DNA from: a virus
Taxonomy: Duplodnaviria > Heunggongvirae > Uroviricota > Caudoviricetes
Reading direction: 5' to 3' (one strand)
IMG/VR virus record: IMGVR_UViG_2579778894_000025
Coordinates: 1 to 7,193 of that record
DNA: 7,193 nucleotides
The notes under the pieces are model-generated. The model was not told the origin of the DNA and did not search any database. It was given only the letters and a program-made list of their open reading frames with translations. This document shows, one piece after another, positions 2,351 through 6,260 of the stretch. The position numbers were made by a program, and so were the translations under genes. Position 1 is the stretch's first letter, and each line of letters begins with the position of its first letter.

Positions 2351-3027
2351 GCAAATACACCGAACTAATCACAAACTACCACGCCACCAAACCTAAATTT
2401 CTTGCACATGTTGATCTGATGACCCGGCCACTTATTGATGTTGCGGCTGCCACCAGAGGGCTGATTACTGCATTTGATATTGACTCTGCGGTTGGTGTGC
2501 AACTTGACATTCTGGGATTGTGGATCGGACGTAGCCGTGTTGTCAGCCAGCCTATCTCAGGTGTCTATTTCAGCTGGGATACCGACGGGCTTGGATATGA
2601 TCAGGGGGTATGGCAGGGACCATACGATCCTGATTCAGGATACATGTACCTCAGCGATGAAACTTATCGTGTCATCCTTAAAGCGAAGATTGCGATTAAT
2701 AACTGGGACGGACGGAATGATTCGCTTCCGGCAATTCTTGACGCGGCAACAGCAGGATCCGGACTGCGAATGCAGATAGTCGATAACCATGACATGACGA
2801 TATCGGTCTGGGTCTTTCCTGATACTGATATTTCAGATGTATCGCGTGAGTTAATTGCGGCAATTAAACAGGGGTATCTCACAGTAAAAGCCGCCGGGGT
2901 ATGGGCGGGTGGCATTGAAACACCTTCGGTGGAAACCCCATCGGAAGGCTCAAAATTTTTTGGTTTTGATATGGATAACGAATTCATCAGTGGTTTTGAT
3001 GTAGGAGCATGGGGAGTATTACTCTGA
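2347..3027 (+). CDS. Tail/baseplate protein, gpI-like (Mu gp48 / e14 YmfQ-type, DUF2313-like)
   Basis: ORF track 2347..3027 (226 aa). ATGA overlap with upstream gene; stop TGA 3025-3027 overlaps the tail fiber start ATG3027 (TGATG). Assignment mainly by synteny, immediately upstream of the tail fiber gene as in Mu and e14. Confidence 0.65.
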   Translation: MSKYTELITNYHATKPKFLAHVDLMTRPLIDVAAATRGLITAFDIDSAVGVQLDILGLWIGRSRVVSQPISGVYFSWDTDGLGYDQGVWQGPYDPDSGYMYLSDETYRVILKAKIAINNWDGRNDSLPAILDAATAGSGLRMQIVDNHDMTISVWVFPDTDISDVSRELIAAIKQGYLTVKAAGVWAGGIETPSVETPSEGSKFFGFDMDNEFISGFDVGAWGVLL

Positions 3028-3659
3028 TGACGAAAAATGACTTTAAAGCGTTTGCAACGGATCGAAATGCCAATGTTATATCGCAGGAGGAATGGGAAGC
3101 GTTGCCCGCGCTTTTATCCGGATTTACAGCAGGGAAAGCATCCAGTGCGCAAGTCAATAAGGTTATTCGGCAGGCCAGCTTTATTGCTGCAGCTCTGGCC
3201 CAGTTTGTAAGTGATAAAACGCAACGGGATGTGCTTGATAATGGTGATCTGCCCGGTTTTGTTGAATTGCTGGGATCGGGGTTTGCTGTTGAATACCTGA
3301 GCCGCAAGAATCCGTTTGGTGATATCAAATCGGATGGCACGGTGAAAACGGCTCTCGAAAACCTTGGTTTTGGAGAAGGTGCTAACTGGGTTATGTTACC
3401 TGGAGGAATGATAATTCAGCGTGTTTATCTTGGATTTCCTGTCGGCACCAATGTAAGACACATAACTTTCCCCCGGTCGTTTACAACAACGAACTATTCA
3501 ATCTCAATTAACTGGAATGATATCGGTACTGCAACAACTGAAACACAATCTCCAGCAAATGTGGCGGTTGTTCATCAAACAAAATCATTAACAGGGGCCA
3601 GCATCTGGCAGGCAGGTCCCGGGGGATTTAATGTGGACATTATAGCGGTGGGGTATTGA
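3027..3659 (+). CDS. Tail fiber protein: constant N-terminal part (about 3027-3363) fused to variable C-terminal part inside the invertible segment (about 3366-3659)
   Basis: In-frame ATG3027 (MTKNDFKAFATDRNANVISQEEWEALP…) is preferred over the track's ATG3009 because it overlaps the upstream stop (TGATG) and has GGAG 10 nt upstream. 210 aa. A hix/gix-like crossover site lies at codons 109-117 (…TALENLGFGEG…). Confidence 0.8.
   Translation: MTKNDFKAFATDRNANVISQEEWEALPALLSGFTAGKASSAQVNKVIRQASFIAAALAQFVSDKTQRDVLDNGDLPGFVELLGSGFAVEYLSRKNPFGDIKSDGTVKTALENLGFGEGANWVMLPGGMIIQRVYLGFPVGTNVRHITFPRSFTTTNYSISINWNDIGTATTETQSPANVAVVHQTKSLTGASIWQAGPGGFNVDIIAVGY
3352..3377 (+). other. Site-specific inversion crossover site (hix/gix/pix-like), left
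   Basis: CTCTCGAAAACC-TT-GGTTTTGGAGAA: two 12-bp half-sites in inverted repeat (10/12 symmetric) around a 2-bp TT core, matching the remembered Hin/Gin/Cin/Pin site pattern TTnTCnAAAACC-NN-GGTTTnnGAnAA. Located inside the tail fiber ORF. Confidence 0.65.
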
Positions 3660-3786
3660 TATGTACGTATAGAGCACTAAAGCAAATGGCTTTTTCCCCA
3701 TATCGGAGAAAGAAAAATTTGAGGCATCAGGTCTGTGGCCTGATGATGGTGTAATAGTCAGTGAGGAAGAACATAAAAAGTTATTT

Positions 3787-4089
3787 ATGGATATTCCACC
3801 AGGAAAACAGATTGGAACACTGAATGGAAAACCAGCACTGATAGATATTCCTCAGCCGACCAAAAAGGAATTAATAGCTATTGCTGAAGTTAAAAAATCC
3901 CAATTACGGGAAAAAGCTGACAGTGAAATATCCTGGCGTCAGGATGCTGTTGATGCTGATATCGTAACTGATGAAGAAGCTACAAGTCTCACCCAATGGA
4001 AGAAATACCGTGTGCTGCTGATGCGTGTTGATACGTCAACAGCACCCGATATTGAATGGCCTACGCCTCCGGCAGTTCAGGCCAGATGA
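3787..4089 (+). CDS. Tail fiber assembly protein (Tfa family), apparently N-terminally truncated by an in-frame amber codon
   Basis: ORF track 3787..4089 (100 aa); C-terminus …EEATSLTQWKKYRVLLMRVDTSTAPDIEWPTPP is the conserved Tfa C-terminal motif. The same frame is open upstream to 3673 and encodes Tfa-like N-terminal sequence (STKANGFFPISEKEKFEASGLWPDDGVIVSEEE…), preceded by ATG3661-TAC-GTA-TAG(3670-3672). Confidence 0.7.
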   Translation: MDIPPGKQIGTLNGKPALIDIPQPTKKELIAIAEVKKSQLREKADSEISWRQDAVDADIVTDEEATSLTQWKKYRVLLMRVDTSTAPDIEWPTPPAVQAR

Positions 4090-4663
4090 CATCCGGCGCG
4101 GTGCTGGTATCTGTTGCCATCACCGCGTCAGTGTAATCCAGCACGGCGTTAAGGCGGGTGGTTTCTGCCTGCGTCAGCCTCCGCCCGGCCTGCAATTTCA
4201 GCTGAATCAGACTGATGGAAGCCATTGCTGCATCAATCAGTGACTGGCGCTGTGCTTCTGCCGCTTCGACTGCGGCGCTATGTTGTGCCTCAGCATCGGC
4301 CACCCATTTCTCACCATCCCATTTATCGTATGGCGTTAACGGTGCGAGAGTGGTTGTATTTTCGGGATAGTCGCCTGGTGCTGTGATTTCTTTGGCATCT
4401 CCCGTTTCGGTGTTATAGACAATTTCACCGCGATGGTCTGGTACATATTCCCATGAGTTAAAATCTGCTGAGCGGCAGATAGCATAACCAGCCTTATGTG
4501 TGCCAGGGGCATCCAAACAAGAAAATGCTGGGATACCGACGCCAACAGCAAGATATTCAGTTGATGTAGAAATATATTCTCGTGTTTCACCATCATAATT
4601 ATAAACGGTAATATCTCCCGCCTTTGTGGCGATGAGTTCCTTATTTAATATAGCTTTATCCAT
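4061..4663 (-). CDS. Tail fiber assembly protein (Tfa family, full length), partner of the alternative fiber C-terminus
   Basis: ORF track 4061..4663 (200 aa); C-terminus …RLNAVLDYTDAVMATDTSTAPDVIWPELPEA is the conserved Tfa motif. Start overlaps the stop of the upstream - strand fiber segment (TGATG). GAGGG lies about 10 nt upstream on the - strand. Confidence 0.85.
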   Translation of the reverse strand: MDKAILNKELIATKAGDITVYNYDGETREYISTSTEYLAVGVGIPAFSCLDAPGTHKAGYAICRSADFNSWEYVPDHRGEIVYNTETGDAKEITAPGDYPENTTTLAPLTPYDKWDGEKWVADAEAQHSAAVEAAEAQRQSLIDAAMASISLIQLKLQAGRRLTQAETTRLNAVLDYTDAVMATDTSTAPDVIWPELPEA

Positions 4664-5172
4664 CAGGCAGCCCTCACGATATAATTAAAGGCAATGTTAC
4701 GGGGTCGATTTTCGTTTGCAGTTGGAACAATTCTTGAAGCATCAAGGCCAATCACTTTTGGGTAAACAGCGCCATCTGTTCTTTCTGTCACCATACTTCT
4801 GGTTAAGGAGAAATAACTATTGTTCGTTGAGGGGTTCAAAGGCACTACTGCCCCCTTAAACGAGCCTACTGATTCCCATATTGAATAATTTTCGGTGTTT
4901 ACAGTCTTGAACTCACCATAGATATTACGTATGGCATCGCCCTGAGCGGATAATATTGTTCTCCCCGCATCCGCACTACGCCCATCATCCCAGCCACGAA
5001 TAAATTCACCGCGTAAATCAGGCAATTTATTTGTCGGGTAAGCCTTTGCCAGTTCCGGGTATTCTTCAGCAGAAAAAGCCGCACCATTGCATTTCAGCCA
5101 GCCTGTCGGCGGAGTGGCGTAAGGCCACGGAACAGGCACACCGACAGGTAATGCAGAGCCTTCTCCCAAACC
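4663..5172 (-). CDS. Alternative tail fiber C-terminal variable segment with collar-type end; promoterless gene segment expressed only after inversion
   Basis: - strand frame open from the crossover site; from the site inward it reads GLGEGSALPVGVPVPWPYATPPTGWLKCNGAAFSAEEYPELAKAYPTNKLPDLRGEFIRGWDDGRSADAGR…NIAFNYIVRAA, typical of phage tail-fiber collar C-termini (lambda Stf / P2 H-like ending). The track's Met at 5214 has no RBS and lies beyond the crossover site, so it is not taken as a real start. Confidence 0.75.
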   Translation of the reverse strand, partial: GLGEGSALPVGVPVPWPYATPPTGWLKCNGAAFSAEEYPELAKAYPTNKLPDLRGEFIRGWDDGRSADAGRTILSAQGDAIRNIYGEFKTVNTENYSIWESVGSFKGAVVPLNPSTNNSYFSLTRSMVTERTDGAVYPKVIGLDASRIVPTANENRPRNIAFNYIVRAA

Positions 5173-5186
5173 AACGTTTAAGAAAA
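5161..5186 (-). other. Site-specific inversion crossover site (hix/gix/pix-like), right, inverted relative to the left site
   Basis: Read on the - strand: TTTTCTTAAACG-TT-GGTTTGGGAGAA; 20/26 identical to the left site (hand alignment), with the same TT core and the same downstream GG-GAG-AAG-G coding GEG. Lies 56 bp upstream of the pin start. Confidence 0.6.
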
Positions 5187-5241
5187 TGCAGAGGTAACAG
5201 CTAACTGGCATCATCTCCGGTTTTTATTCAGGGGGATGATC

Positions 5242-5796
5242 ATGCTTATTGGCTATGTACGTGTGTCAACAAATGACCAGAACACAGACCTACAACGTAA
5301 TGCGCTGAACTGTGCAGGATGTGAGCTGATTTTTGAAGACAAGATAAGCGGTACAAAGTCCGAAAGGCCTGGACTGAAAAAACTGCTCAGGACATTATCG
5401 GCAGGTGACACGCTGGTGGTCTGGAAACTGGACCGGCTGGGGCGCAGTATGCGGCATCTTGTCGTGCTGGTGGAGGAGTTGCGCGAACGAGGCATCAACT
5501 TTCGTAGTCTGACTGATTCAATTGATACCAGCACACCAATGGGACGCTTTTTCTTCCATGTGATGGGTGCCCTGGCTGAAATGGAACGTGAACTGATTGT
5601 TGAACGAACAAAAGCAGGACTGGAAGCTGCTCGCGCACAGGGACGAATTGGTGGACGACGTCCCAAACTTACACCAGAACAATGGGCACAGGCCGGACGA
5701 TTAATTGCATCAGGAGTTCCTCGCCAGAAGGTGGCGATCATCTATGATGTTGGCATATCGACTTTGTATAAGAGGTTTCCGGTCGGAGATAAATGA
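5242..5796 (+). CDS. pin: Serine DNA invertase, Hin/Gin/Cin/Pin family
   Basis: ORF track 5236..5796; start refined to ATG5242 (MLIGYVRVSTNDQ…, 184 aa) with GGGGGA 6 nt upstream. Small serine recombinase hallmarks: catalytic Ser9 in VRVSTNDQ, conserved DRLGRS and GRFFFHVMGALAEMERELIVERT segments, C-terminal helix-turn-helix (QKVAIIYDVGISTLYKRF). Strong resemblance to Hin/Gin from memory. Confidence 0.9.
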   Translation: MLIGYVRVSTNDQNTDLQRNALNCAGCELIFEDKISGTKSERPGLKKLLRTLSAGDTLVVWKLDRLGRSMRHLVVLVEELRERGINFRSLTDSIDTSTPMGRFFFHVMGALAEMERELIVERTKAGLEAARAQGRIGGRRPKLTPEQWAQAGRLIASGVPRQKVAIIYDVGISTLYKRFPVGDK

Positions 5797-6100
5797 AACC
5801 GTAGCACGTCGTATGCAAGAACGTGCCACGGCTGGCTGATGGACGTTCGATAGCGCGAGTTTGAATGAAAATCAGCCGGAGATGATTTTACATAATTGCT
5901 ACGGAATTATTCAATAAAGGAATTGCTTGTGTCTGCATGGATTGACCTGAAATATTCCCGAAAATTTCTCTAAAAAACTCGAAAAAAATGGTAACTAATT
6001 GAATGTATTAATATGCAATGGTACGTGTTAGGGATTAAAAGATGAACGTAAATTTATTCAACGCATTAATTTTAAAGGGTTTTATTGTTTGTTGACGAAA

Positions 6101-6126
6101 ACAGGAATCGTGTTCGGTCTCTTTTT
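6101..6126 (+). ncRNA. sdsR: Putative 3'-terminal remnant of sRNA SdsR (RyeB), ending in a U-tract; the upstream part does not match
   Basis: ACAGGAATCGTGTTCGGTCTCTTTTT matches, to within one base, the 3' end of E. coli SdsR as I remember it (…ACAGGAAUCGUAUUCGGUCUCUUUUU). The upstream sequence does not match the remembered SdsR body. Position upstream of pphA on the same strand agrees with the K-12 locus order yebY-sdsR/ryeA-pphA. Memory-based, not verified. Confidence 0.35.
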
Positions 6127-6260
6127 ATCTGTTAAAAGCCAGAAGCATTTCCTTCGCTGACTTTATAGTCAACCATAACACACACTCTACTGTCTGAGTC
6201 CAGCGTTTTTTAACATTCTTGTTAAGATTATGTGATCTTTAGCGCGGGAGGAAAATATTG

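Follow-up and report, generated by a model that had tools for sequence, protein, structure and literature searches.

An amber codon at position 4 of a tail-fibre assembly gene in a Pin-type invertible segment of an Escherichia coli prophage

Introduction

Tail-fibre assembly (Tfa) chaperones of the Caudo_TAP type, among them gpU of phage Mu (TfaMu, PDB 5YVQ), Tfa of lambda and TfaE/TfaP of the e14 prophage, are encoded directly 3′ of the fibre gene that they serve. Their variable N-terminal domain is the fibre-binding part that sets specificity, and their conserved C-terminal domain is the trimerising part (PMC9608196). Fibre genes and their chaperones are also found in invertible segments, such as the P segment of e14 (invertase Pin), the G segment of Mu (Gin) and the C segment of P1 (Cin). 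In these systems a serine invertase adjoins a segment bounded by 26-bp inverted sites, one of which lies within the fibre gene, and the segment holds two convergent cassettes, each consisting of a fibre C-terminus and its own Tfa. Fibre function can be ended by one small lesion that leaves the module still recognisable. Laboratory lambda PaPa, for example, carries a frameshift in stf (Hendrix & Duda, 1992, as cited in PMC9608196), and cryptic prophages such as e14 carry pseudogenes.

Here we describe a 7,193-nt window (the whole stretch of DNA that was analysed) from an E. coli prophage that shares the features of these systems and also departs from them. Its tfa gene stands directly 3′ of the fibre gene, encodes a protein with a full-length Pfam match and a variable N-terminal α/β domain, and has the conserved C-terminal helical region of Mu U. 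The segment around it corresponds to those of e14, Mu and P1 in its adjoining invertase, its 26-bp inverted sites (one of them in the fibre gene) and its two convergent fibre/Tfa cassettes, so that the likeness to the Din family is one of sequence layout. Unlike those segments, it is carried by a different backbone (a DUF3383/DUF3277 tail and a DUF2612 wedge) beside pphA, and one of its two chaperones appears to be knocked out by an amber codon at codon 4, a feature that sets this tfa apart from the described Caudo_TAP genes. The case also differs from lambda PaPa stf in being a nonsense codon of the chaperone gene as opposed to a frameshift in the fibre gene, and in being found in the draft genome of one natural isolate. 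It is most probably an ordinary private nonsense lesion of a decaying prophage.

Results

The host is E. coli, because the prophage genes are flanked by pphA, yebW, yebV and rsmF. At the same position, strain PEC209 carries the right end of a contractile-tail, myovirus-type prophage with the order DUF3383, DUF3277, spike, sheath initiator, baseplate J, DUF2612 wedge, fibre, Tfa, tfaE, alternative fibre part and pinE; the DUF3383 family product is probably the sheath and that of DUF3277 probably the tube. These genes follow one another in the same order in strain MINF_2E, whose fibre gene measures 633 nt and whose tfa, of 429 nt, is intact. Positions 1-95 of the window are the end of a multicopy IS66-family element, which stands in place of the 5′ end of the prophage spike gene and with which the source contig begins. 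This sequence gave 3,813 matches spread over 1,781 E. coli genomes. As homology to the spike of the relatives starts only at ~96, the original start and roughly 16 codons have been lost from the spike gene here.

The tail-fibre gene (3027-3659, + strand) encodes 210 aa, with a constant N-terminal part that extends to about 3364 and a gp53-like C-terminal variable part whose match to Pfam Gp53-like_C is weak (24.5 bits, just below the curated cut-off of 24.9). The same 633-nt fibre gene is present at locus L011. Within it, at 3352-3377 (+ strand), lies a 26-bp crossover-type site, CTCTCGAAAACC-TT-GGTTTTGGAGAA, that marks the left end of the segment. The matching inverted site, TTTTCTTAAACG-TT-GGTTTGGGAGAA, marks the right end at 5161-5186 (− strand), with ~1.8 kb between the two. 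Both contain GGTTT(T/G)GGAGAA and a 2-bp TT core, and we take them to resemble hix/gix/pix sites. They were found by eye; an automatic inverted-repeat search of 2900-5400 returned just one chance 19-nt pair. The opposite cassette comprises an alternative, intact 200-aa tail-fibre assembly gene (tfaE-like, with a Caudo_TAP match; 4061-4663, − strand) and an alternative fibre C-terminal part with a Collar domain (4663-5214, − strand). Beyond the segment follows a Pin-type serine invertase gene, annotated pinE in relatives (5242-5796, + strand; Pfam Resolvase 1.5e-51 and HTH_7 6e-12). The 3′ ends of the two convergent tfa genes share 29 nt (4061-4089), and both genes encode a ...TSTAPD(I/V)xWP... 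C-terminus.

The tfa gene of the + cassette occupies 3661-4089 (+ strand). The fibre stop TGA (3657-3659) is followed by a single t (3660), the start codon ATG (3661-3663), TAC, GTA and then TAG (3670-3672). The translation of 3661-4089 reads MYV*STKANGFFPISEKEKF...PPAVQAR* (asterisks denote stops), that is, 142 codons closed by a TGA at 4087-4089, with the TAG as the sole internal stop. Re-reading of the sequence and its translation thus confirmed the first-pass annotation of the window, which had reported a TAG at codon 4 of a frame otherwise open for 142 codons. The public record JICG01000033.1 of draft assembly GCA_000690985.1, of which the window covers bases 2-7194, has an identical sequence there, including the TAG.

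With TGG restored at codon 4, the 142-aa protein is colinear with intact 142-aa homologues, 94-95% identical to them and without indels. The Trp-restored sequence matches Pfam PF02413 (Caudo_TAP) with E = 2e-32 and 112.5 bits (cut-off 22.1), over residues 9-137 and profile positions 4-130 of 131. Given this colinearity and the strength of the Caudo_TAP match, the open frame is not a product of chance. These comparisons indicate that the intact protein is a 142-aa Caudo_TAP protein, with a predicted role as a tail-fibre assembly chaperone. The earlier proposal of a nonsense lesion in an otherwise complete tfa is borne out, as the homologues have a sense codon at this place and the remainder is colinear. 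By its position, the amber-bearing gene is predicted to provide the chaperone for the cassette that is at present joined to the constant part of the fibre gene, in the expressed orientation; since it lies inside the Pin-invertible segment, the lesion touches only one of the two alternative sets of fibre part and chaperone. In three P2-like backgrounds (L007, L010 and L045) the cassette to which this gene belongs stands beside the invertase, in the non-expressed position. This fits a cassette that may occupy either position of such a segment, and the segment of the present genome may be able to invert.

The ancestral codon was determined from several collections. Base 3671 is A in the window and G in all homologues read directly: TGG stands at codon 4 in seven of the seven aligned E. 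coli loci and, in a search of IMG/VR with a degenerate TRG pattern, in all 34 copies recovered; in 28 of these the 142-aa ORF is complete and begins with MYVWSAKANGFFP. A 60-nt query centred on the codon located the gene in 111 of 5,426 complete E. coli genomes, with a best identity of 96.7%, and the window 60-mer with TAG had an exact match in none of the 5,426. The consensus 60-mer with TGG was found exactly in 102 of the 112 complete E. coli genomes that hold the gene. A TAG-bearing 25-mer had no match in species-representative genomes, nor did a TAG-bearing 20-mer in metagenome contigs. Among the collections searched, the TAG allele is therefore known solely from its source record, the NCBI draft GCA_000690985.1. 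Together the alignments indicate that the lesion is TGG to TAG, Trp4 to amber, through a G-to-A transition at 3671 peculiar to this record.

This revises the earlier interpretation in one respect. The first-pass annotation had proposed the loss of a Tyr codon (TAC or TAT); because all homologues read directly have TGG, that proposal is wrong in detail and the residue lost is Trp. It had also placed the TAG where Tfa N-termini typically have Tyr. Across 49 relatives, position 4 is indeed always aromatic (F in 24, Y in 15, W in 10), but all close relatives have Trp; Tyr is typical of position 2 in the same alignment.

Our preferred reading, to which we assign a probability of about 0.8, is that a single G-to-A change made Trp4 of the + cassette chaperone an amber codon, that the allele is likely null or strongly reduced, and that it represents private decay of an IS66-damaged prophage. 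The other explanations were weighed against this one as follows.

The A at 3671 could instead be a sequencing or assembly error in a draft genome whose real gene is intact with TGG. We regard this as unlikely. In its favour, the allele has been seen in one draft assembly only and nowhere else among the collections searched. Moreover, the complete-genome search found up to three copies of the cassette per E. coli genome, and such copies can confuse consensus calling from short reads. The collapse of paralogues, however, cannot account for the A, since G stands at this base in every known copy. The tfa allele also carries three private changes besides the amber, all non-synonymous (Ala6Thr, Ala102Val and Thr109Ser), which indicates that it is truly divergent and is not a consensus with one bad base. 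The first is a second G-to-A in the E. coli and IMG/VR alignments, at 3676 (+ strand), 5 nt 3′ of 3671, that changes GCT to ACT. The other two are private substitutions further into the gene at 3965 (Ala102Val) and 3986 (Thr109Ser); position 102 is Ala in 48 of the 49 relatives and Val in the window allele. A 64-nt query spanning 3944-4007 (Val102/Ser109) found the exact haplotype in none of the complete E. coli genomes, a result that speaks for the exact haplotype alone, as two mismatches leave relatives without a 28-mer seed. The private changes fit relaxed constraint, with recombination as an alternative source. We did not adopt them as a firm sign of relaxed selection, given that recombination with a divergent tfaE could import changes; it is a possible source of those at 3965 and 3986 because the adjoining tfaE half is divergent (~90-94% identity).

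Real, independent lesions of the same gene are common in other genomes, which likewise argues against an error. In L047, L048 and L050, a run of five T is shortened to four (window equivalent 3691-3695), causing a frameshift. L007 has a +C frameshift after the equivalent of 3708, and the annotated 134-aa protein (P0002) stands behind a +1 frameshift. The tfa of L046 has a cluster of indels, that of L049 an IS21 junction and that of L051 a deletion junction. To judge from these sequences, tfa has been hit by independent lesions in other E. coli genomes or assemblies. Such damage leaves databases with shortened "tail fiber assembly proteins", as seen for the 100- and 134-aa calls that were read.

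Far less probable is a functional shorter protein. The next ATG, GTG or TTG in frame past the TAG is ATG 3787, the codon for Met43, which opens a residual 100-aa ORF (3787-4089, + strand). The gene also has a 118-aa product in NCBI/RefSeq (WP_432263893.1; 3733-4089, + strand), named tail fiber assembly protein rather than pseudogene and called from a CTG at codon 25, with GAGG 8 nt 5′ of this CTG. Each of these ORFs reads through to the usual stop codon without interruption and retains the conserved C-terminal helices (residues 73-137). On the other hand, CTG is a very weak start codon in E. coli. No Shine-Dalgarno-like sequence was seen upstream of ATG 3787, in agreement with the earlier remark that Met3787 has no good ribosome-binding site. 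Met43 is not conserved either, being replaced by G, A, Q, S, T or a gap in the family alignment and by Thr in four intact IMG/VR copies, and none of the homologues read has a natural start at the equivalent of Met3787. The exact 100-aa product from Met3787 is absent from the protein collection, which has the 118-aa call from CTG 3733 and annotated versions of Tfa of 100, 118, 129 and 134 aa from other E. coli. The underlying DNA was read for the 100-aa P0123 and the 134-aa P0002. Both were rejected as natural short forms: each stands behind its own lesion (frameshift, IS or deletion), and we thus consider them gene-caller responses to damage. The 118-aa NCBI call for the window is a way for the annotation to get around the damaged 5′ end.

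Structural considerations point in the same direction. A phmmer comparison with Mu Tfa (PDB 5YVQ chain B) aligned residues 73-137 to Mu U residues 113-174 (E = 6.6e-06); only this part aligns, and the N-domain has no detectable similarity to that of Mu U. We used an AlphaFold model of P0001, a 95%-identical relative (pLDDT 92.5), to place the secondary structure elements. The N-terminal part of this model consists of β1 (2-5, holding Trp4), β2 (10-13), α1 (14-22), β3 (30-33), α2 (35-43), β4 (49-54) and β5 (57-62), followed by long helices at 68-98 and 104-121. According to the model, a fragment from Met43 would lack five of the seven N-domain elements (β1-β3 and α1-α2), retaining only β4-β5 and the C-terminal helices. 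A product started at either Met43 or the CTG at codon 25 would thus be without most of the fibre-specific N-terminal α/β domain.

We also considered designed readthrough of the TAG, whether programmed or mediated by a suppressor tRNA that host or prophage supplies, as a means of adjusting the amount of chaperone or the host range. Nothing speaks directly for this, apart from the very early position of the stop and the fact that insertion of Tyr would restore an aromatic residue tolerated by the family. A stop that serves recoding is expected to be conserved, whereas TAG was found in 0 of the 34 IMG/VR copies, in no complete E. coli genome and in none of the metagenome contigs, so that a programmed signal is unsupported; in addition, the window contains no tRNA genes. 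We therefore hold designed readthrough to be highly improbable. The same slight credence is given to the amber and Pin inversion forming a selected conditional switch, in which one host-range state would need a suppressor tRNA or the chaperone of another prophage and the hosts yielding infectious + orientation particles would be restricted.

Discussion

The reading that we prefer, a private Trp4-to-amber lesion in the chaperone gene of the + cassette, suggests the following course of events. Ribosomes starting at ATG 3661, probably through coupling to the fibre stop that lies one base 5′, would terminate after three codons, and no in-frame ATG, GTG or TTG would be available to restart on before Met43. 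Most likely, the allele would contribute nothing, or far less than normal, to the folding of the + orientation fibre. From sequence we infer this loss of function, the translational coupling and the biological origin of the base change. Some activity could be left through low-level readthrough, through the Tfa of other prophages (which have the same conserved C-domain) or through inefficient initiation at CTG 3733. Because tfa is the last + strand gene of the cassette, a polar effect is not expected.

As the segment now lies, the cell would produce the fibre but lack the chaperone that matches it. Inversion by Pin would bring the alternative fibre part, which is intact, and the 200-aa Tfa into use instead. 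Thus, if the prophage is otherwise functional, working fibres are expected only with the segment flipped. The amber would also fit neutral decay of a tail module that had already been interrupted by the IS66-family element.

In databases, this gene should be labelled a pseudogene (Trp4 to amber) instead of a tail fiber assembly protein of 100 or 118 aa. More broadly, the locus is a small example of the frequent independent loss of the chaperone gene in E. coli prophages.

Two further observations concern the architecture of the region. The opposite cassette (4090-5214) is ~90-94% identical to that of L001, L003 and L011, whose + cassettes match the window at ~97%; this gap in identity between the two cassettes indicates that the invertible segment is a mosaic of alleles. 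Finally, ~460 bp of non-coding sequence (5797-6257) separate the invertase gene from pphA and presumably contain the junction between prophage and chromosome.
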